This document shows, piece after piece, positions 3,216 to 12,880 of a stretch of DNA of 23,350 bases. The DNA lies in assembly GCA_043803805.1 (NCBI GenBank), contig JAZDJP010000040.1, positions 1 through 23,350 on the forward strand, in the 5' to 3' direction. The stretch's first letter is position 1; every line of letters starts with the position of its first letter. The stretch is from Planctomycetota bacterium. Lineage in GTDB: Bacteria > Planctomycetota > JAZDJP01. The position numbers were made by a program, and so were the translations under genes. Below the pieces are notes generated by a model. That model did not search any database. It was not told the DNA's origin and worked only from the letters and a program-made list of their open reading frames with translations.

Positions 3216-3241
3216 TGAAAATTTTATAAGGAGACATGTCC

Positions 3242-4720
3242 ATGGGTCCCATCCCTTTCCTGCCGCTGGCGGAAATTTCCGGCGGCCACGTGGTGCTGGC
3301 CGCCCTCGCGGTGGTCGTCATCTTCTTCATCCTCATGACGGTCCTCCTCAAACGCTACATCAAGGTGGGACCGAATGAGGCCCTCATCATCTCGGGCCGC
3401 AAGCACACCTACTCCGGCCACAAGGGGGAGGATATCGCCGTCGGCTTCCGGATCGTGAAGGGCGGCGGGACGTTCGTCTGGCCCTTCATCGAAAAGGTGG
3501 ACATCCTCTCGATGGAACTCCTCACCCTCGACGTCAAACTCGAGGACGTGTACACCATCACGGGAGTCCCGGTGTACGTGGACGGCGTGGCCCAGATCAA
3601 GGTCAAGGGGGACGAAATCTCCATCGCGACCGCGTCGGAACAATTCCTTGGCAAAGACCAGGGCGAGATCATGCAGATCGCCCTCCAGACGGTGGAGGGG
3701 CATCTCCGGGCCATCGTCGGGACGCTGACCGTCGAGGAAATTTACAAGAACAGGGAAATGTTCTCCCAGAAGGTCCAGGAGGTGGCCGCCGGGGACCTCG
3801 CCAACATGGGGCTCACGGTGGTGTCGTTCACGCTGCGCGAGATCAAGGACAAACAGGGGTACCTCGACGCCTTGGGCCGGCCGCGCATCGCCCAGGTGAA
3901 GCGCGACGCGACCATCGCGGAGGCCGAGGCCTCGCGGGACGCCACCATCAAGAGCGCGCAGGCCAACCAGGAGGCCCAGCAGGCCAAGTTCGGGGCCGAG
4001 ACCAGGATCGCCGAGGCCAACCAGAGTTACGAGGTGAAAAAGGCCGAATATCAGGTCAACATCAACTGCCGGAAGGCCGATTCTGACCTGGCCTATGATT
4101 TGGAACGGTACAAGGTCGCCCAGCAGGTCAAGGCGGAGGAGATCAAAGTCCAGGTGATCGAACGCGAGCAGATGATTGACATCCAGGAGAAGGAAATCTC
4201 CCGGAGGCAAAAAGAACTGGAAGCGACCATCCAGAAGCCCGCCGACGCCGAGCGGTACAAGATCGAGACGCTGGCCAACGCCCAGCGCTTCAAGTACCAA
4301 ACGGAAGCGGAAGGGCAGGCCCTGGCGACGAAGTCCATCGGGTTCGCCGAGGCCGACGCCTCCCGGGCCAAGGGCATCGCCGTCGCCGATGTCATCAAGG
4401 CCCAGGGGTTCTCGGAGGCCGAGGCGATGACGAAGAAGGCCGACGCCTGGAAGTGCTACAACGAGGCGGCGCTCGCGCAAATTATTGTGGAGAAACTCCC
4501 GGAGATCGTCCGGGCCGCCGCGGAACCCCTGGCGAAGACGGAAAAGATGATCGTCATCAACGCCGGGAGCGAAGGCGGCGGGGCGTCCAAGATCACCAAG
4601 GACGTCACCACCATCGTCAGCCAGGTGCCGCCGATCATCGAGGCGCTGACGGGCCTGAAACTCGAGGACCTCATCGCCAGACTGCCGGGGATGGGAAAGA
4701 AGGATGGGGAAAAGAAGTAG
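3242..4720 (+). CDS. Flotillin-like SPFH/band-7 domain protein (FloT/YuaG-like)
   Basis: N-terminal TM, an SPFH domain, then a long Ala/Glu/Gln-rich coiled-coil flotillin region (EAEASRDATIKSAQANQEAQQAKF...). SD AAGGAGA at 3228-3234. The ATG at 3242 is preferred over 3236 because of spacing. Confidence 0.85.
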   Translation: MGPIPFLPLAEISGGHVVLAALAVVVIFFILMTVLLKRYIKVGPNEALIISGRKHTYSGHKGEDIAVGFRIVKGGGTFVWPFIEKVDILSMELLTLDVKLEDVYTITGVPVYVDGVAQIKVKGDEISIATASEQFLGKDQGEIMQIALQTVEGHLRAIVGTLTVEEIYKNREMFSQKVQEVAAGDLANMGLTVVSFTLREIKDKQGYLDALGRPRIAQVKRDATIAEAEASRDATIKSAQANQEAQQAKFGAETRIAEANQSYEVKKAEYQVNINCRKADSDLAYDLERYKVAQQVKAEEIKVQVIEREQMIDIQEKEISRRQKELEATIQKPADAERYKIETLANAQRFKYQTEAEGQALATKSIGFAEADASRAKGIAVADVIKAQGFSEAEAMTKKADAWKCYNEAALAQIIVEKLPEIVRAAAEPLAKTEKMIVINAGSEGGGASKITKDVTTIVSQVPPIIEALTGLKLEDLIARLPGMGKKDGEKK

Positions 4721-4795
4721 TGCTGAGTACGAAGTTCTGAGTGCTGGGAACATCGTACAGGGGGGAGGGATAGTTGATAGTGAATAGTGGCCAGT

Positions 4796-4838
4796 AGGAA
4801 GTCGGCGAGTCCGCGAGTCGCCGAGTCGGAGAGTCGGC
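4796..4838. repeat. Tandem 8-bp NNNGAGTC array: GAGTC at 4807,4815,4823,4831 plus degenerate AAGTC at 4799, the opposite orientation to the 182-253 array
   Basis: Read directly from the sequence; followed by CTGAACT...TTTTCTGCGAG, a motif shared with the element at 8015-8049. Confidence 0.85.
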
Positions 4839-4941
4839 AACCTCTCCAACTCCTGAACTCACGAACTTTTCTGCGAGATGCGGACGACGAGGAACGAGCG
4901 ACGAATCGGGCCGGGACTGCCAACCGGCCCTTCTTCGTAAC

Positions 4942-5175: not shown

Positions 5176-5400
5176 TTGTCAGGATGATCTGAAGTGGGTT
5201 ATCGATCCCCCAATTCCGAATCATTCGACAATTGATCGGCGAATCCGTCGTGAGCCCCGACCTTCCGCTTTCCCGCCCGTGGTGCTACCTCACCCCAACG
5301 ATTGTCCTGGCGGCGTTGGTCGCACTGGTGCTGACGTGAGGATGATTCGATTACCGGGACCGATGACGAAAATCACCCGCGCGCGGACGGACGGGGGCGA

Positions 5401-5622
5401 TCATCCCGCCGGCCGGCGCCTCCGGAAACTGGCCGCGATCCACCCCCGGTTCAAAATCACATGAAGGACGATGCCGACGATCAACACCGTCCCGCCCCCC
5501 TCGTGCGCCGCCTCGAAAACATCCCGGGGCAGATTGTCCGCCAAATACCCCGACAGCGCCTGCGTCACGGTGAGCAGGGCCAGCGCCGGGTTCAGGATTT
5601 TCAGCATTGTGGCTGTGGTCAT
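5401..5622 (-). CDS. Hypothetical small membrane protein (73 aa)
   Basis: ATG (reverse complement at 5620-5622) preceded by a strong SD GGGAGGG with a 5-nt spacer; high GC3; one hydrophobic segment (GTVLIVGIVLHVIL). The upstream in-frame extension overlapping the palindrome was rejected. Confidence 0.5.
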   Translation of the reverse strand: MTTATMLKILNPALALLTVTQALSGYLADNLPRDVFEAAHEGGGTVLIVGIVLHVILNRGWIAASFRRRRPAG

Positions 5623-5640
5623 GATTTCCCTCCCAACAAT

Positions 5641-5669
5641 GCAGGGGCGGGTTTGAAACCCGCCCCTAC
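5641..5669. repeat. 29-nt near-perfect palindrome GCAGGGGCGGGTTTGAAACCCGCCCCTAC with a 14-bp GC-rich stem and one mismatch in the left arm; REP-like element or terminator
   Basis: Read directly from the sequence; overlaps the stop codon (5666-5668) of the ankyrin gene; belongs to the same family as 6874-6901 and 11702-11730. Confidence 0.8.
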
Positions 5670-6832
5670 TTCTCCAACATCCCGACAATCGCCGGATTCT
5701 TCATTTCCTTCGCCAGCTTCACCGCCGTCCTTCCCTGCATATCGCACAATTTTTTATCGGCTCCGTTTTTCAAAAGAAGTGCGACCATATCCCGGTTCCC
5801 CTCCCGCACGGCGATATGCAACGGCGTATCACCAGCGGAGTCCTTGAAACCAACCTCCTCTACTACTTCGTTGACACTCCGTTCGGCAATATCCAACCAC
5901 CCATGCCGAACCGCCTCGTGTAAAACCGTGGTTTTGCCGGATGGCGCCTTAATTTTCGGATGGTGGTTCAATAACACGTCCACGATGCGCCGATTCCCTT
6001 GAACGGACGCCATCAGGAGCGGCGTGAGTCCATTCCGGGAGGTCGCATTCACATCCACATTCTGTGATAACAGGTACTGGACGGAATCCAAATCCTCCAT
6101 GACAATCGCCACGTGCAAGGGGCGATATCCCTCCTCCCCCAAGGCCTCCGGGGATTTTTTCATGAAGTCCTTGCGATTCTCCATCCCAAGCGCCAGGGCG
6201 ACATGAACATCCGGACGCGCCCCGCGACTGACCAGAAATTCCAATATGGACTTGAGAGACTCCGCCTCCGTCAATCGTTCCTGTAACCATCGGGGAAGAT
6301 TCTCCCGTCCGACCTTCATCTCATCCATGATCTTCGGCATCACCCTGACAAAGCACGTCGAAGCTGCGTAATGAACTGCCGCGCTATTCGCCAGAGATAT
6401 GCCATGTCTGTCCATCTCATTAACATCCGCCCCGTGCCGGATCATCAACTCCACCATTTTGCGCGTGCCGGAAAGGACAGCACTGCGCATGGCCGAACCA
6501 AACGACTTGTCCCGCAAATCCGCCCCTTGGGAAATCAGCAACTCCGCGACTTCAGCATTGTCAGCGAGCATCGCCCAAAAAAGCAACGGGAACCCGTTTT
6601 CATCCCGTTCATTGATGAGGTCCGGATTATTTCGAATCAACTCCTTCAATCGAAGTATGTCATTCTTCTTCACAGCCTCCGCCATCTTCTGCACCGTCAC
6701 CATCCGGTCCATTTTCCGAATATCGTCCTGTTTTTTCCAATGTTGATACATCCAACAAACGGCGCATATCCCCATCAGCACCAGCAACAGGCACAACCGA
6801 AGCCGACGATAAAATTCAACGGTCGTAATCAT
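5666..6832 (-). CDS. Ankyrin-repeat protein with an N-terminal membrane anchor
   Basis: Multiple ANK repeats (e.g. GYRPLHVAIVMEDLDSVQYLLSQNVDVNATSRNGLTPLLMASVQGNRRIVDVLL and DSAGDTPLHIAVREGNRDMVALLLKNGADKK); N-terminal hydrophobic helix LRLCLLLVLMGICAVCWMY; GC content about 50%, against about 65% in neighbouring genes. Confidence 0.85.
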   Translation of the reverse strand: MITTVEFYRRLRLCLLLVLMGICAVCWMYQHWKKQDDIRKMDRMVTVQKMAEAVKKNDILRLKELIRNNPDLINERDENGFPLLFWAMLADNAEVAELLISQGADLRDKSFGSAMRSAVLSGTRKMVELMIRHGADVNEMDRHGISLANSAAVHYAASTCFVRVMPKIMDEMKVGRENLPRWLQERLTEAESLKSILEFLVSRGARPDVHVALALGMENRKDFMKKSPEALGEEGYRPLHVAIVMEDLDSVQYLLSQNVDVNATSRNGLTPLLMASVQGNRRIVDVLLNHHPKIKAPSGKTTVLHEAVRHGWLDIAERSVNEVVEEVGFKDSAGDTPLHIAVREGNRDMVALLLKNGADKKLCDMQGRTAVKLAKEMKNPAIVGMLEK

Positions 6833-6873
6833 GCTCTTCCCCAGGCGAATTCATTTCCTTCCGCAATCCACAT

Positions 6874-6901
6874 GTAGGGGCACGTTGCAACGTGCCCCTA
6901 C
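6874..6901. repeat. 28-nt perfect palindrome GTAGGGGCACGTTGCAACGTGCCCCTAC
   Basis: Exact self-reverse-complement read directly from the sequence. It lies between the ThyA-like stop (6922) and the ankyrin start (6832) and shares GTAGGGGC/GCCCCTAC termini with the other two palindromes. Confidence 0.8.
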
Positions 6902-6921
6902 GAATCCGGATGATTTCCGAA

Positions 6922-7905
6922 TCACGCCGTCAACCGCCCCGTTTCAATCTCCCGGATGAGATTTTCAAGAAGGGCGATTTTGTCGGGGGGGAAGCGCCAC
7001 TGGCGGCGGTTCTCGTCGGAGAGAAGCCCCTTGAGTTGCGGAATCACAAGCATCTCGGCGGCATCCTCGCTCCGGAGCGCCCGCGCCACGTAGGATTCCT
7101 CGTCGCACGTCTCGAAGAAACTCTTGATGCCTTTTGCGGGATCGCCCCCCACCCGGGCGAAGTCCTGACCGTAGATGTGAAGGCTGAAAACGTGGTCGGA
7201 GTAGCTCCCCACCTTCACCGGCCGATTCGCTTTCGCGGCGATGTCCTTCGCGATCATCTGCTGGAGAAACGTGATTCCAATTAAATTATCCGGCCAGGCC
7301 TTGTAGAGGTCGCGGCTGCGCCAGTGGGTGCTTAAATTCAGCACGAGATTCCCGTCGGCGTCCTCCGGACAGCGGAATTGCATCTCCCGCAGGCACGGGA
7401 CGTCCTCCTTCAGGAACGGATCGAGCCAGGGCGCCGGGGTGGAGGCGACCGCCCGGCGGGTGTGCGGGGTCTTCGCGACGCGCTCGATGGCGAGCGCCAC
7501 CTGGTCCACCGTCCCGCCATCCGGCCCCGGGTGGGCGAAAAGCCTCTGGTGGTACGTGTAGGGCCACTCCGTCGCGGCGAGTTCCCCGTGGATGGAGGCC
7601 TTGAGTTTTTCCACCGGCACCACGAGATGGTCCTTCACTCCGAGAAACTCGGCGATGTAGGTCCCGATTTCGCAGAAGGACACCGCCGGGTAGCGCGGCT
7701 GGGCGAAGGGATCCAGAATTTCCACGAGGACGCGGGCGTCGCGGCTGGGCGGGTCCATGAACGACCCGTCCGGATTCTTCCGGTCGTACTCCGTCCGCAT
7801 GGCCAATCCGTTCTCCCACACCGCCTTCATGGCGCGGTAGTGGGCGCGGGGAATGGACTCGGCGACGACGTGAAGAGTGGGCAGGCGGCCGGGGTTCGTG
7901 GACAT
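6922..7905 (-). CDS. Divergent thymidylate synthase (ThyA) family protein; a thymidylate synthase or pyrimidine-nucleotide C5 hydroxymethylase-like enzyme
   Basis: Aligns by eye to ThyA core motifs: YTYHQRLF (~YGxQWR), DQVALAIERVAKTPHTRRAVASTPAPW (~DQ...DPxSRRxIxSAWN), PCLREMQFRC (~PCHxxFQFYV, catalytic Cys), LSTHWRSRDLYKAWPDNLIGITFL (~LSCQLYQRSxDxxLGxPFNIASYALL), DHVFSLHIY (~GDxHxY). SD GGGAGGA lies 6 nt upstream of the ATG at 7905. The longer ORF extension to 8058 is a translation of the GAGTC repeat and was discarded. Confidence 0.75.
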   Translation of the reverse strand: MSTNPGRLPTLHVVAESIPRAHYRAMKAVWENGLAMRTEYDRKNPDGSFMDPPSRDARVLVEILDPFAQPRYPAVSFCEIGTYIAEFLGVKDHLVVPVEKLKASIHGELAATEWPYTYHQRLFAHPGPDGGTVDQVALAIERVAKTPHTRRAVASTPAPWLDPFLKEDVPCLREMQFRCPEDADGNLVLNLSTHWRSRDLYKAWPDNLIGITFLQQMIAKDIAAKANRPVKVGSYSDHVFSLHIYGQDFARVGGDPAKGIKSFFETCDEESYVARALRSEDAAEMLVIPQLKGLLSDENRRQWRFPPDKIALLENLIREIETGRLTA

Positions 7906-7953
7906 GCGGATTCCTCCCGTAATAAATCGAGGATGTTCGTGATGCCGCCCCAT

Positions 7954-8095
7954 GAGTCTGGAGAGTCCGCGAGTCGGCGAGTCAGGGAGTCTACCCCCCT
8001 CCCCCCTGAACTTTCCACCTCTCTGACTCCGTCGGTTTTTCTGCGAGTCACAGGCCACAGGTCCGGGACTCGGTGACTCGAAGACTCACCGACTA
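7954..8095. repeat. Inverted pair of 8-bp-unit arrays: GAGTC x5 (7954,7963,7971,7979,7987) and GACTC x3 plus a degenerate unit (8067,8075,8083,8091), separated by about 75 bp that contains a CCCCCCTCCCCCCTGAACT...TTTTCTGCGAGTC motif
   Basis: Read directly from the sequence. It sits between the stop of the methyltransferase-PDZ gene (8100) and the ThyA-like start (7905), so it occupies the ThyA-like promoter region. Confidence 0.85.
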
Positions 8096-8099
8096 CTTC

Positions 8100-9131
8100 T
8101 TACCAAAGCGTCACCTCGATTTTCACCTTCCGTTTTCCGCGCACCATCACGAGGCGCAGTTTCTTCTCCTCGCCGACGGATTTTCGCAAGCGATGGATGT
8201 CGAGTTCCCCGACGGGACAATCGCTCACCGCGGCCAGGCGGTCCTTCGCCTTGACGCCGGCCTTCTCGGCGGGCGTGCCCGGAAGCACCTCCCCCACCGG
8301 CCAGGCGTCGCCCGTGCGCGTGATGTTCAGTCCGATCCCCAAAAGGGCCACCCCCAGACGCATGACATCGCAGGCCGCGTTCACCTCCACCCAGATGCCC
8401 TTCCCGGCCGGGACGGCCGTGATGACGGCCAGAGCCCCCGGCTCGCCGCGGTCCGAGTGATACGCGTATTCAAACGAGGCGATCCGGAAATCCGCCGTGT
8501 GGAGCGCACCCAGCCACTCCCGCGTCGCGGTCGAATCCTTCAGGGACGCGGCCGAAACGAGGATGCCGTCCTCCGCGAGCGCGCCCCGGACCCGCCGGAA
8601 CGCCTCCGCCCGCTCCCGGACGCATTCCACCGCGCGGGTGTCCACCGCCGCGTCGAAGGGCCCCCTGGGAAGCGCCTTCGTGAAATCCCCCGTCACGAAC
8701 TCGATATTTTTAATCTTGAGCGCCCCGGCCATCCGCCGCGCCTCGGCGACGGCGTTCCGGGCGAAATCCATCCCCGTGACGCGGGCCTTCTTGTTTCGCG
8801 CGGCGTACCACGTCGCGAGGTATCCGGTGGAACTCCCGAGGTCGAGGATGCGTTTCCTCTCACCGATCGCCTCCGCCGCCGCTTCCCCGGCCGCGCGGAC
8901 GGCGTCCGTGTGCATGGAGAGCACCACGGGCGCTATTTTCGGGTCGGCGGTGAAATTGGAAAACCCCTGCCAGTCCGCGAGATTGGATCCCTCGCGCTCG
9001 AGAGGCTGGAGAAGGGTCTGCACCTCGCGGGCGACCCGGGGGCCGAGTTCCTTCGCGGCCCAGTAGAAATAATCCACCGAGGTGAACCGCCGGAGGCCGA
9101 AGCGGACGAGATGCTTCTCCAGGGACGTCAT
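8100..9131 (-). CDS. Class I SAM-dependent methyltransferase fused to a C-terminal PDZ domain
   Basis: Methyltransferase motifs I (ILDLGSSTGYLATWYA), II (VTGMDFARNA) and III (IEFVTGDF) are present. The C-terminal 90 aa match the PDZ pattern (GIGLNITRTGDAWPVGEVLPGTPAEKAGVKAKDRLAAV...LRLVMVRGKRKVKIEV). Confidence 0.8.
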   Translation of the reverse strand: MTSLEKHLVRFGLRRFTSVDYFYWAAKELGPRVAREVQTLLQPLEREGSNLADWQGFSNFTADPKIAPVVLSMHTDAVRAAGEAAAEAIGERKRILDLGSSTGYLATWYAARNKKARVTGMDFARNAVAEARRMAGALKIKNIEFVTGDFTKALPRGPFDAAVDTRAVECVRERAEAFRRVRGALAEDGILVSAASLKDSTATREWLGALHTADFRIASFEYAYHSDRGEPGALAVITAVPAGKGIWVEVNAACDVMRLGVALLGIGLNITRTGDAWPVGEVLPGTPAEKAGVKAKDRLAAVSDCPVGELDIHRLRKSVGEEKKLRLVMVRGKRKVKIEVTLW

Positions 9132-9325
9132 GGCCGTTCATGGTAAGCGGCGGCCCCCGCCGGCGCAATCCGAATTCCGCCGGATCCCCGCGCCGCCGGG
9201 TTCCACCTCTACCGCGTGAGGCAGGCCGCCAAGCACAAAATCACCGCGACCGGTTTCTTTTTATATATCCATCGGCGCGGGCCTGGAAACCCTTGAGCCC
9301 GGCGGCAGGGGAACGGGGGGCCGAC

Positions 9326-12300
9326 CTAGTCCGTGCGCTCGACCTTCGCGGTGGCCGTCCTTACCAGCGCCGCCTTGCCGGAACCGTCCCAGAACCGCAG
9401 CGCGGCAACCACCTCGGCGCCCACCTTCAGGTACGGGCCATCGCGCGTGACGAGCTCGACAACGAGTTTTTTACCGGCATGGACGGTGATGGTATCCCGG
9501 GCCTTGGGGTCCTCTCCCGGAAAGAACTTGCCATTGTTTCCCACGGTCGCGACGTGCATGTTCCAGGAGAGATTGACGTCCTTCTTGCCGGCGGAGTTGT
9601 CCAACTCCACGGCCACCTTGGCGTGGAGCGGCGAGCCGCCGTCGGGGCCGGGATTGTCCACGACGGGCATCCAGTCGCGCCAGAAGTAGACGTCCCCGGT
9701 CTTAATCTTGCAGTCGCCAACGGCCTCCCCGCGCTGGAGCACCACCTCGGCCCTGCCCGGCTCGACGATCTCGATTTCCACGGGGCCGGTGGTGACCTTG
9801 CCGTTCCAGAATGCGGTCCCCGCTTGCGGAACGTCGCAAGCCGCGGTCATGACGTACTTGCCGGGCGGCAGGGACTTCGACAAGATGTTTTTCCCCTCCT
9901 CGCCGACGTTCCAGAACTCACACATCAACAACGCCTGCGCTTTTTCACCGGCCTGTAAATTCACATCGGGGCGGAGAGGCATCGGCTTCGGCGGCGGGTG
10001 AATGCTCGCCGTGTACGTTTTCTTGCTTTCTTGCGCGACAAGACGCACTTTCCAACTCCATGTGTCAAGCACCCAACCCGGCAGTTTTATGGGCTGATTT
10101 CCCGCGTTCATGAGACAAGCATCCATCACAACCGGCTTCCCGGCCTCGAACTTCGCCTGCTTGGCCGACAGCCCCGCTTGGAGGCCGTTCACCGCCGAGC
10201 CCCAGGAAATGTTTTCAGCCTCCTTTCCACCCTTTTCTATCCGAATCGTCCAGACGTTTGAACTGACTTTTCCGCGAATCTGACGGATTCTATATTCGCC
10301 GGGTTTTTCGAATGAAAAAAAAGTTGAAAGAGGGATAACAAGAGTTTGTTCCTGCCCCGACGCCAGGGAGTAGCGAGTGTTGACGATATGGTTGGCGATA
10401 CGGCCCTTCACGGCTTTCCCATCAGGACCGATGACTTCCAACAACGCCGCGTTAAATGCTCCGAGGTAGAGATTTTCCTGAACATCTTCTTGGTCCATTT
10501 GCTCGAAATGGCCGACGTCCTGTATGGCTTCCTTGCCGCCGTTTCTTACGCCAAGTGTGACTTTGATGACCTCGTTCGGTGCGTATTCCGTCTTTTCCGA
10601 CCAGACGCCGCATTGAAGCCCCGCGTTCAGCCCGACCGACGCCTGGCCCCAGGAGATGTTGTCCTTCGGCACCGTCGATTTCGCGCCGCTTTTATCCCTG
10701 ACCTCGATCCTGATTGAACCGGTCTCCACCGCACCCGTCCATGCGGGAACGAGGTTCTGGGGCACGACCCTGACGTGTTTTCGCGTGTCGCCTCCCCATT
10801 GATATTTCGCTTTGACAAGGTACTCTCCTGCCGGCAAGGCATCGACATCAATCTTGGCGCCCGCAGGGGAGTTCCCGATTTTCCAGAATCCGCCGACCTC
10901 GCCAAAAACGATGGTCTCGATTTTCCGATCCTTCTTTTCGAATTCGCCAAGAGAAATATCTTCCCCTCCCGCCGACTTCGTCCAGTAGTAGATTTCTTTC
11001 CTTTCCCCGGATTCAAACGAGAGCGCGAACCGGTCCGGATGGTCCCAAGCATCCAGCCGGAGCGCTTTTCCCCCCGTATTTTCAAAATGAATAGCGAAAT
11101 TCATGGATTCGCCGGCCCTGAATACGTTTTGTCCTGCGGTTGCGATCCCCGCCTGCAGGCCGTTGACGGGCTGGCCCCAAGAAATGTTTTCAGCCTCCTT
11201 TCCACCCTTGGTCTGAATTTCAACCGCTGGTGAGCCGGCCTCGCCTATCCAGACTCCTTCCTTGCGGAGTTTTTCCAAGTACGCAACCGCCTCCGCCTTA
11301 TTGGCCTCGGTGTTCTCAACAAGGGAGTCCAGCGTCAGGGCGTACCGGAATCGCACCGCGCGGGCCCTTGCCTCCGGCGCGGCGCCGAAGAATTCCTTGA
11401 GAGAGCCCGACGAAAGCGCCGCGGTTTCCCCCGGCGCGATGATTTTGCGCTTGCCGTCGTAGATGCCGGCGTCGAGCACCGCGAGTTCTCCAGTTTTGTA
11501 GCTGAGCCCCTGACGTACGACCGCCCCCTTCTCGTCCACGAGTTCCCAGCCGGAGGAACCCCGATAGGTGCAGAGCGTCACGGGTTTGTCACCCTCGTTT
11601 CTGACAAATGCCCCGGCGCGCAATCCGTCTCGGTCTTTCGTCAACCGGACGCCAACAGACAGGCCGTTGACCGGCTGGCCCCAGGAAATGCCGTCGTTTA
11701 CGGGTGAATCCGTAGGGGCGGGTTTCAAACCCGCCCCTACATTGTCGGTTTTTTTCGTGACGTCCTCGCCCGCCCTGCACCCCGCCACCACCACCGCCAT
11801 TGCGAGAAACACCATTCCTGTGAATCCCAGCATCCAGGTATTCATCCGCGTCACAAGACGCCTCCTTTCGTCAAGAATTCCTTTCACACGCTCCTCAAGA
11901 TTCCACCGGGGATGCACGAGGCCCACCGCCGCCGGTGTGCGGTGGAAGATGCTCGTCTTCTCCGCGAGATCCAAGAGCATTTTGGCGTAACCCGGCGCGT
12001 TCCCCCGCCGCAATACATAATTGTCGCACACCTCCTCGCGGGCGCGGGCGAGTTCGCCGTTTGCCTTCCAGACAAACGGATGCCACCAGAACACGACTTC
12101 CGCGATGCGCTGAAGAAGTCCCACCAGATGATCCCGCTGAAGAACGTGGGCGCATTCGTGGACGAGAATATCGCGAAGTTCCACCGGACCGAGAAGTCCC
12201 GCCACCGGCGTCGGAAGCAAAATCATCGGCCGCGTGATGCCGAAACAGATCGGCCCCGTGATCTGCCCCGACATGCCGATCGGAGGAAGCGCGCGGACGC

Positions 12301-12880
12301 CGAGCGCATTTTTCACATCCGCCAGGACGGGCCCCATCTCGTCGTCATCCAGCGGGATGGCGCTTGTCCGGAGCGCCGTCTGGACTCCAAAACCATGAAT
12401 CAGACGAACCAGCATGACAAGAACTCCCCCCGCCCAGACGAGAAAAACGCCGCACACCGCGGCCCGAATCCGGTCCGCTCGGGAAAGCGGCGGCGACGCG
12501 GGTTTCACGGGCGTCGCCGGCGCGGTCTCCGCGCGGACGACCGGCGCCGGATGCGGGGAGACCGGGATGACGGGTTCCGAAACGGTTTGGATCGACGTCG
12601 CCGGTGCGGCCGCCGCCGGTGGGGAAACAGGTTTCTCCCTCAAGAAAGGAAGAGTAAACGTCGTGATCCCCGCCGCCTCCGCCACCACCGACACCAGCGG
12701 CGCGAGAAGCACCACCGCCAGGGCCGACAGCCACAATCCGTAACGGACGGCCGCCCCCGCCCGGCGGAAAATCCGGGAAAGCATCCAGGCCAGAGCCACC
12801 ACCACCGTGACCTGGATCAACGCATTCATCGCGGCGAGCGCCGCGGCGTCACCAAGATAAAATCGGAGAAGCGTCCTCAT
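9326..12880 (-). CDS. blaR1: BlaR1/MecR1-family M56 peptidase signal transducer (anti-repressor) with a very large C-terminal extracytoplasmic sensor built from about four tandem repeats, each of about 190 aa, carrying an ISWGQPVNGL motif
   Basis: N-terminal TM helices and the zinc-metalloprotease motif VHECAHVLQRDH characteristic of BlaR1; a further TM at about aa 350; the repeats contain DGISWGQPVNGL, ENISWGQPVNGLQAG, DNISWGQASVGLNAG and ENISWGSAVNGLQAG. The gene overlaps the upstream blaI-family gene by 4 nt (ATGA). Confidence 0.85.
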   Translation of the reverse strand: MRTLLRFYLGDAAALAAMNALIQVTVVVALAWMLSRIFRRAGAAVRYGLWLSALAVVLLAPLVSVVAEAAGITTFTLPFLREKPVSPPAAAAPATSIQTVSEPVIPVSPHPAPVVRAETAPATPVKPASPPLSRADRIRAAVCGVFLVWAGGVLVMLVRLIHGFGVQTALRTSAIPLDDDEMGPVLADVKNALGVRALPPIGMSGQITGPICFGITRPMILLPTPVAGLLGPVELRDILVHECAHVLQRDHLVGLLQRIAEVVFWWHPFVWKANGELARAREEVCDNYVLRRGNAPGYAKMLLDLAEKTSIFHRTPAAVGLVHPRWNLEERVKGILDERRRLVTRMNTWMLGFTGMVFLAMAVVVAGCRAGEDVTKKTDNVGAGLKPAPTDSPVNDGISWGQPVNGLSVGVRLTKDRDGLRAGAFVRNEGDKPVTLCTYRGSSGWELVDEKGAVVRQGLSYKTGELAVLDAGIYDGKRKIIAPGETAALSSGSLKEFFGAAPEARARAVRFRYALTLDSLVENTEANKAEAVAYLEKLRKEGVWIGEAGSPAVEIQTKGGKEAENISWGQPVNGLQAGIATAGQNVFRAGESMNFAIHFENTGGKALRLDAWDHPDRFALSFESGERKEIYYWTKSAGGEDISLGEFEKKDRKIETIVFGEVGGFWKIGNSPAGAKIDVDALPAGEYLVKAKYQWGGDTRKHVRVVPQNLVPAWTGAVETGSIRIEVRDKSGAKSTVPKDNISWGQASVGLNAGLQCGVWSEKTEYAPNEVIKVTLGVRNGGKEAIQDVGHFEQMDQEDVQENLYLGAFNAALLEVIGPDGKAVKGRIANHIVNTRYSLASGQEQTLVIPLSTFFSFEKPGEYRIRQIRGKVSSNVWTIRIEKGGKEAENISWGSAVNGLQAGLSAKQAKFEAGKPVVMDACLMNAGNQPIKLPGWVLDTWSWKVRLVAQESKKTYTASIHPPPKPMPLRPDVNLQAGEKAQALLMCEFWNVGEEGKNILSKSLPPGKYVMTAACDVPQAGTAFWNGKVTTGPVEIEIVEPGRAEVVLQRGEAVGDCKIKTGDVYFWRDWMPVVDNPGPDGGSPLHAKVAVELDNSAGKKDVNLSWNMHVATVGNNGKFFPGEDPKARDTITVHAGKKLVVELVTRDGPYLKVGAEVVAALRFWDGSGKAALVRTATAKVERTD
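10183..10234. repeat. Intragenic DNA repeat, copy 1 (52 nt; the last 34 nt are nearly identical to 11175-11208)
   Basis: GGCCGTTCACCGCCGAGCCCCAGGAAATGTTTTCAGCCTCCTTTCCACCCTT matches 11157-11208 with about 6 mismatches, and the 3-prime 34 nt differ at a single position. It encodes the KGGKEAENISWGQ segment of a sensor repeat. Confidence 0.7.
11157..11208. repeat. Intragenic DNA repeat, copy 2 (paired with 10183-10234)
   Basis: See copy 1. Weaker, more diverged copies occur near 10621-10660 and 11671-11700. Confidence 0.7.
11702..11730. repeat. 29-nt perfect palindrome GTAGGGGCGGGTTTCAAACCCGCCCCTAC located in frame inside the blaR1-like ORF, where it encodes the GAGLKPAPT linker segment
   Basis: Exact self-reverse-complement with a 14-bp stem; same family as 5641-5669 (opposite loop orientation) and 6874-6901. 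Confidence 0.8.

Follow-up and report, generated by a model that had tools for sequence, protein, structure and literature searches.

A GTAG double-foot repetitive extragenic palindrome, probably a tolerated in-frame insertion, in the linker of a BlaR1-like sensor gene from a Planctomycetota metagenome-assembled genome

How does a perfect 29-nucleotide (nt) palindrome come to lie within an open reading frame (ORF) and be translated as part of it? The question is raised by contig JAZDJP010000040.1 of a Planctomycetota metagenome-assembled genome (MAG; assembly GCA_043803805.1). Here we analyzed a stretch of 23,350 nt from this contig (positions 1 to 23,350 of the forward strand), referred to as the window. 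At 11712-11740 it contains the palindrome GTAGGGGCGGGTTTCAAACCCGCCCCTAC, inside a minus-strand gene for a BlaR1-like membrane metalloprotease. An earlier sequence-only reading proposed a repetitive extragenic palindrome (REP) or a MITE (a miniature transposable element with inverted repeats) within a coding region, with the frame preserved. Our results support this proposal and narrow it to a REP. The palindrome is a GTAG double-foot REP of subclass 2.4 of the REP-associated tyrosine transposases (RAYT/TnpAY1), very probably tolerated as an in-frame insertion in a linker. This assignment follows from its GT[AG]G feet, its GC-rich stem with compensated changes, its dispersal over many phyla, and in-frame copies in RAYT genes and in other proteins.

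The palindrome itself is real, though the sequence-only reading had placed it at 11702-11730, off by 10 from the true site. The GTAG foot is found on the plus strand at 11712-11715 and on the minus strand at 11740-11737. The latter corresponds to a 3′ reverse-complement foot, CTAC, at 11737-11740, giving the element its double foot. The resulting hairpin has a GC-rich 13-bp stem and a 3-nt loop, with the foot on both strands. Folded as DNA, a 46-nt segment reaches -16.7 kcal/mol (z = -5.3 versus shuffled sequence). The 23-nt core occurs twice in the window versus 0.00 times expected from 100 dinucleotide-preserving shuffles, so chance does not explain the palindrome. Only one of the three frames on each strand contains a TAG stop, and the other two are open on either strand. 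Two-thirds of frame-preserving insertions would thus be read through without a stop.

The host gene (9326..12880, minus strand) encodes a protein of 1184 amino acids comprising an M56 domain, a transmembrane (TM) helix, a linker, and four repeats with an ISWG motif. The Peptidase_M56 domain (PF05569) spans residues 16-333 (E = 4.6e-37) and contains HECAH, an HExxH motif. Upstream lies a gene for a BlaI/Penicillinase_R-type repressor (PF03965; 12877..13293, minus strand), the end of which (12877) overlaps the ATG of the host gene (12880) by 4 nt, indicating one operon. The M56 domain with HExxH and the upstream BlaI-type repressor are the marks of a BlaR1/M56 signal transducer. Homologs range from 650 to 1900 amino acids, with the M56 domain usually followed by a TM helix and a large extracytoplasmic domain. 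In the present protein, the sensor part (residues ~395-1010) is built from four repeats, each ~150-175 residues long and beginning with (N)ISWG(Q/S)xVNGLQAG, and a Pfam search gave no match for these repeats. Two metagenomic homologs, P0003 and P0004, likewise join the ISWG module to M56.

Within this gene the palindrome begins exactly at a codon boundary (GTA GGG GCG GGT TTG AAA CCC GCC CCT AC) and, on the minus strand, encodes VGAGLKPAPT (residues V381-T390) within KKTDNVGAGLKPAPTDSPVNDGISWG. Translation of the ORF places this peptide past the final TM helix (..AMAVVVAGC) and ahead of the first ISWGQPVNGL repeat, so the claimed in-frame position in the linker that precedes the extracytoplasmic repeats is borne out. 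Right after ..VAGCRAGE.., all 24 aligned M56 homologs diverge in both sequence and length, which indicates that the element sits in a non-conserved linker of variable length. VGAGLKPAPT is absent from every one of the 24, and nothing is conserved among them at this point.

A second copy had been claimed at 5641-5669 with its loop inverted, and it is present as GCAGGGGCGGGTTTGAAACCCGCCCCTAC, with one foot mismatch besides. Together with its flank, CCAACAAT, this copy occupies 5633..5669 between two minus-strand genes. It is inverted relative to the copy at 11712-11740, has G instead of C as its center base, and reads GCAG for GTAG in one foot. On the transcribed minus strand this mismatch becomes a G-U pair; the other strand keeps GTAG. 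The 11712-11740 copy is followed at 11741..11748 by an asymmetric flank, ATTGTCGG (minus strand CCGACAAT, codons T-D-N), which is shared with 5633-5640. With the common flank CCRACAATG included, the two copies are 95% identical over 37 nt in opposite orientation. The shared flank shows that the 5633-5669 and 11712-11748 copies are recent relatives and that the duplicated unit in the source genome is at least 37 nt long.

This flank is rare elsewhere. In a comparison of flanks across 101 copies, ACAAT-flanked elements were few, consistent with the two copies in the window and one internal to the RAYT gene at locus L139. Only 7 metagenome contigs carry the ACAAT flank, and their DNA further out is unrelated. 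We considered ACAAT as a general part of the element and rejected this because of its rarity; it instead marks a local sub-lineage. A composite transposon bounded by the inverted copies (5633-11748) was also rejected, as the genes in this interval are ordinary ones and two-thirds of the BlaR1-like gene also falls within it.

Beyond the source genome, dispersal was scanned with the 23-nt core GGGGCGGGTTTNAAACCCGCCCC in contigs of one genome per species. The core is present at no fewer than 120 loci in at least 10 phyla. These include Chloroflexota (Anaerolineae, Dehalococcoidia), Desulfobacterota, Nitrospirota, Omnitrophota, Planctomycetota, Actinomycetota (Rubrobacter, Coriobacteriales), Bacteroidota (Lewinella), Pseudomonadota (Alpha-, Beta-, and Gammaproteobacteria), Patescibacteria, Fibrobacterota, Binatia, and others. 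Most of the matches listed carry the GTA..TAC extension, which the query left unspecified, and their outer flanks are unrelated. Most of the remaining matches listed have a complementary alternative such as GCA..TGC, ATA..TAT, or TCA..TGA. Many variants keep 14 of 14 pairs by double changes, as in GCA..TGC, ATA..TAT, GTAT..ATAC, and GTAGGGACAGG..CCTGTCCCTAC, and a sibling palindrome at locus L027 has a fully compensated stem (GTAGGGACAGGTTTCAAACCTGTCCCTAC). Other genomes contain several copies per 8 kb (L027, L135), and those at L135 include REPIN-like doublets. The dispersal and the compensated stem variants together point to a dispersed repeat constrained by its hairpin rather than to convergent terminators.

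The copies are depleted from long ORFs, with a median longest spanning ORF of 552 nt versus 1191 nt for random positions at the same loci; a minority lie deep within long ORFs. When the ORFs lying within 2.5 kb of 125 copies were all compared with one another by BLAST, no family of neighboring genes recurred. BLAST against plasmids returned isolated copies in cultured Gloeothece PCC 7822, Desulfosarcina BuS5, and Leptolinea HRD-7, BLAST against phage records gave no full-length match, and the 29-mer occurs in 15 IMG/VR contigs. Two loci show larger arrangements around the element. At L091, two copies of the 29-mer lie within 91-nt inverted repeats (161-251 and 4252-4342) that are 85% complementary, and a 4-kb operon for glycogen metabolism (starch synthase, ROK kinase, GH57) lies between them. 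Here a REP pair frames an ordinary operon and does not form a transposon. At L047 (Dehalococcoidia), two tandem copies at 5430-5620 each lie within a conserved ~113-nt repeat.

In other genomes, copies are also found in frame within ORFs, both in RAYT genes and in unrelated proteins. In a CobC-like phosphatase (L083), three homologs in the PDB have a 14-residue gap exactly at DGSVGAGLKPAPTKT. A PaaK-like ligase (L055) has 4-9 extra residues at the element, which is read there in the other open frame as RGGFETRPY, and a MoeA_C domain (L060) has ten extra residues. The 29-mer also lies within an MMPL-family protein (PF03176; L019) and in a CheA-CheY hybrid (L095), where it falls in the linker joining the CheW-like domain to the receiver domain. 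This last case is a close analog of the BlaR1 linker copy.

These contexts bear on the idea that the VGAGLKPAPT peptide is what selection maintains and that the palindromic DNA is a coincidental by-product. A Gly/Ala/Pro-rich peptide would make a plausible linker, but the 29-mer is found unchanged in more than 100 contexts, coding as well as non-coding, its reading frame varies between them (VGAGLKPAPT or RGGFETRPY), and the M56 homologs lack the peptide. Variants also change residues and yet keep base pairs. In one paralogue among the RAYTs at L139 (internal palindromes at 932-960 and 3274-3302), GTATGGGC..GCCCATAC encodes VWAGLKPAHT, with two residues changed and the base pair kept. These observations exclude a constraint at the protein level as the origin of the palindrome.

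The link to a transposase family came from a query with an approximate sequence of the E. coli RAYT (YafM), which gave one weak match (E = 0.002) that led to a RAYT at locus L115. The gene at L115 (6412..6987) encodes a 191-amino-acid protein with a Pfam Y1_Tnp match and contains the exact 29-mer in frame (ENVGAGFKPAPT). Its motifs run ..MPNHVHGIIVL..ENVGAGFKPAPTSRHPLSEIVRAIKTFSSRRIN..WQRNYYE..YIVDNP... The protein has 7993 homologs at E<=1e-5. In most of the 120 of these that were listed, which were chosen as candidates by word matching, VGAG[LF]KPAPT or a close variant lies between the HUH motif and the helix HGLPEIVRAFKTFSSRRIN. Several of the 120 repeat the peptide near the N- or C-terminus, about 100 residues off, or carry tandem partial copies of it.

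At the DNA level, the internal RAYT peptide is encoded by the exact palindrome at L139, L141, and L115, and by a sequence one substitution away at L142. At L142 (3058-3698), variant copies of the GTAGGGGCAGG..CCTGCCCC type flank the internal copy at a distance of 306 nt on each side, so that three REP copies lie at the start, middle, and end of the RAYT ORF. REP copies, exact or variant, are thus present just beyond the RAYT core as well. Family traits among the 120 listed homologs include NH[IVF]H (113 of 120), WQ (118 of 120), YIxxNP, and a median length of 192.5 amino acids. These motifs and the length match the family to TnpAY1 subclass 2.4, which equals RAYT group 4. Some RAYTs (P0123-P0126) contain tandem partial duplications in which DNVGAGFNP occurs 2-4 times before DNVGAGLKPAPT.

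The RAYT link and the flank comparison also bear on whether the element is a MITE or an insertion sequence remnant, moved by a DDE transposase and carrying terminal inverted repeats and a target-site duplication. Its small size, inverted-repeat form, and several copies would suit such an origin. However, 29-37 nt is far under MITE size, and the element consists entirely of a single GTAG-footed hairpin, with no internal segment bounded by repeats. The flanks of the 101 copies showed neither conservation nor duplication of the kind that a target-site duplication of fixed length would leave, and Y1_Tnp is the only gene family found to contain the element or to be flanked by it. We regard this origin as very improbable.

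The sequence-only reading had also raised a role for the palindrome as a strong hairpin in the transcript. As a functional cis-element in the mRNA or DNA, a stem-loop between the protease and sensor modules would pause translation or transcription, for instance to help insertion into the membrane, or protect or process the transcript, and would be selected rather than tolerated. The stem is indeed very stable: an RNA fold of 81 nt reaches -35 kcal/mol (z = -4.4) and is dominated by the palindrome hairpin. The palindrome is still perfect, it lies exactly at the module boundary, and the copy at 5641-5669 preserves pairing on the transcribed strand through its G-U pair. REPs are also known to act as mRNA stabilizers or terminators in some operons (PMC3733652). 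On the other side, the identical sequence at arbitrary places in unrelated genes and intergenic DNA makes a position-specific function unneeded, and the M56 homologs have no conserved element at this point. A scan of 5300-12200 for Rho-independent terminators flagged neither the 11712 nor the 5641 copy; the sense strand 3′ of the stem reads GGATTCACCC, with no T/U tract. No Rfam family reached the gathering threshold anywhere in the window, and the region around the site gave no match even at E<=1. We therefore consider a selected function unlikely. Nothing indicates exaptation of the palindrome and no sign of function was found, and the copy in the BlaR1-like gene is probably neutral.

A different concern is that the gene itself could be an artifact, with an assembler having joined two loci or inverted a 6-kb segment at the repeat to produce an artifactual 1184-amino-acid M56 fusion. 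Two inverted copies sharing 37 nt at a distance of 6 kb, in a contig from a MAG, are what such an error would call for. The repeat is, however, shorter at 37 nt than the final k-mer of the usual metagenome assemblers, and the frame stays open through it for 1184 codons. The order of M56, TM helix, and extracytoplasmic domain is normal in homologs, and with the ISWG-M56 fusions in P0003 and P0004 this family architecture makes a fusion artifact appear unlikely. Taken as a whole, a chimeric contig is highly improbable.

The preferred reading remains a REP tolerated in frame, and a mechanism for its arrival can be proposed. A subclass-2.4 RAYT, present now or formerly in the source genome, would mobilize its cognate double-foot REP as a single-stranded hairpin, and cutting and re-joining of such hairpins by the RAYT may spread REPs around the genome. 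One unit of at least 37 nt, including a short 5′ flank, would have inserted into the stretch of the blaR1-like gene that encodes the linker. With an insert length divisible by three, the reading frame would be kept. The Gly/Ala/Pro-rich decapeptide VGAGLKPAPT could then be tolerated in a flexible extracytoplasmic linker and persist as a passenger. The open frame and the variable, non-conserved linker argue for this tolerance. By analogy with the copies elsewhere, the copy in the BlaR1-like gene appears to be an insertion rather than an ancestral feature, with a RAYT as its likely mobilizer.

Several observations weigh against this reading. A collection of 5.8 billion proteins contained no close ortholog or REP-free allele, and the nearest relatives are at most 52% identical, over the N-terminal M56 third only, with 46% identity for the top match. 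The insertion and its boundaries in the BlaR1-like gene are therefore inferred. A hidden Markov model of the RAYT family found no member in the window, and none besides L115 in the ~140 loci. Both the copy number and the search for a cognate RAYT draw on 23 kb of the source genome. The word-based choice of candidates inflates the peptide-bearing fraction among the 120 listed homologs. An unbiased HMMER search, started from a member without an intact peptide, found 17,426 representative clusters at E<=1e-10, and only 12 of the top 150 representatives have the exact peptide. Several other listed representatives have different repeat-like peptides in the same loop, and the 29-mer is therefore one of several REP variants used by the subclass. 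The only target-site signature among the 101 copies is a pyrimidine preference at position -1. Finally, selection or a recent arrival could also explain why the palindrome is still perfect.

The same 29-mer across phyla, embedded in a RAYT gene, suggests that the enzyme is transferred together with a seed copy of its substrate. One speculative extension, which we put forward tentatively and consider rather unlikely, is that subclass-2.4 RAYT genes carry a master REP copy inside their own coding sequence and that horizontal transfer brings in enzyme and seed together, as a "self-seeding REPtron". This might account for the essentially invariant 29-mer across at least 10 phyla, with the stop-free frames letting the repeat colonize linkers as a reusable Gly/Pro-rich spacer. 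If true, it would contradict the usual view that REPIN-RAYT systems are lineage-specific and inherited vertically. No explicit statement of such a joint transfer of enzyme and seed substrate was found in the REP/RAYT literature surveyed.

The window contains further features related to the element. A sibling double-foot REP, GTAGGGGCACGTTGCAACGTGCCCCTAC, forms a perfect 28-nt palindrome at 6874..6901, which keeps the foot (GTAGGGGC..GCCCCTAC) but differs in its inner stem. It brings the count in the 23 kb to two copies and one sibling. It is intergenic, in the gap between an ankyrin-repeat gene (5666..6832, minus strand) and a thymidylate-synthase-like gene (6922..8058, minus strand), so that REPs flank the ankyrin gene at both ends (5641-5669 and 6874-6901). 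The TAG stop of the ankyrin gene (5666-5668) is the TAG of the REP GTAG foot (...MLEK-TAG-GGGCGGG), and the REP at 5641-5669 may have trimmed or replaced the original ankyrin C-terminus.

Separately from the REPs, the window has arrays in which the pentamer GACTC/GAGTC recurs at a strict 8-nt period, in up to 9 units (GACTCCCA GACTCCGA GACTCTTG ...). They are found at 180-255, 4796-4838, 7955-7992, and, more loosely, 8024-8095. For at least two of them, the position coincides with the 5′ end of a minus-strand ORF or is just upstream of it (3224..4849 and 6922..8058). These could be regulator-binding or methylation-site arrays, or a low-complexity N-terminal coding repeat.

For the BlaR1-like gene, the element most likely adds a tolerated spacer of 10-13 residues to the sensor linker. 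For annotation, the peptides VGAG[LF]KPAPT and RGGF[EQ]TRPY, and TAG stops inside GTAGGGGCGGG, should be taken as REP-derived and not as conserved motifs of the proteins. Assembly and gene calling in MAGs can likewise be misled by such repeats. More broadly, a REP that is identical across phyla and tied to the RAYTs carrying it bears on whether REP/RAYT systems spread horizontally or vertically. Literature searches by the DNA string or by the encoded peptide returned nothing relevant.

Among known systems, Rickettsia palindromic elements, reportedly described by Ogata and colleagues in 2000, are said to be in-frame palindromic repeats within genes, the added peptides being tolerated in surface loops or linkers. 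They are reportedly ~100-150 bp long, confined to Rickettsia, and without an associated RAYT. They resemble the present REP as palindromes that add peptides in frame, and their sequence is unrelated.

The REPIN/RAYT systems of Pseudomonas and E. coli have a GTAG/GTGG head, GC-rich hairpins, and presumed mobilization by a single-copy RAYT (Bertels & Rainey 2011, PMC3116915; Nunvar et al. 2010, PMC2817692). The present element shares the head, the hairpins, and the presumed mobilization by a RAYT, and its doublets at L135 recall theirs. Classical REPINs, in contrast, consist of two imperfect REPs with a spacer and are almost entirely extragenic and lineage-specific, whereas the element here is a single perfect two-footed palindrome common to many phyla.

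Likeness is also found to the GTAG REPs cataloged, in 24 families, by Di Nocera et al. (2013, BMC Genomics 14:522; PMC3733652), which include Planctomycetes, Chloroflexi, and Cyanobacteria. In that catalog, GTAG REPs lie wholly inside ORFs of known proteins and add short peptides, and the GTAG foot can donate its TAG stop codon to a neighboring ORF. Both traits recur in the window, as the intragenic copy and as the TAG donation at the ankyrin gene. Their intragenic examples are mostly DNA-repair or RNA-related genes, unlike the BlaR1-type sensor here.

The element matches subclass 2.4 as defined by Quentin et al. (2018, BMC Genomics 19:475; PMC6006769), which has double-foot REPs with 5′ GT[AG]G and 3′ C[TC]AC. 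The present element agrees in its feet, its long GC-rich stem, and the G-C pairs at the stem base. Also shared are REPs around the tnpA-REP gene as well as within it, the internal ones inserted in frame between HUH and Tyr, the NH[IFV]H, WQ, and YIxNNP motifs, a length of ~194 amino acids, and a patchy distribution over several phyla. That paper stresses Cyanobacteria and Bacteroidetes, whereas the host here is a Planctomycetota MAG, and cross-phylum identity such as that of the exact 29-mer in at least 10 phyla was not found stated in it. The phenomenon is thus already published, with GTAG double-foot REPs known in frame within genes, including their own RAYT, and known to donate TAG stops. 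To these host genes the present locus adds a BlaR1-type sensor in a Planctomycetota MAG.

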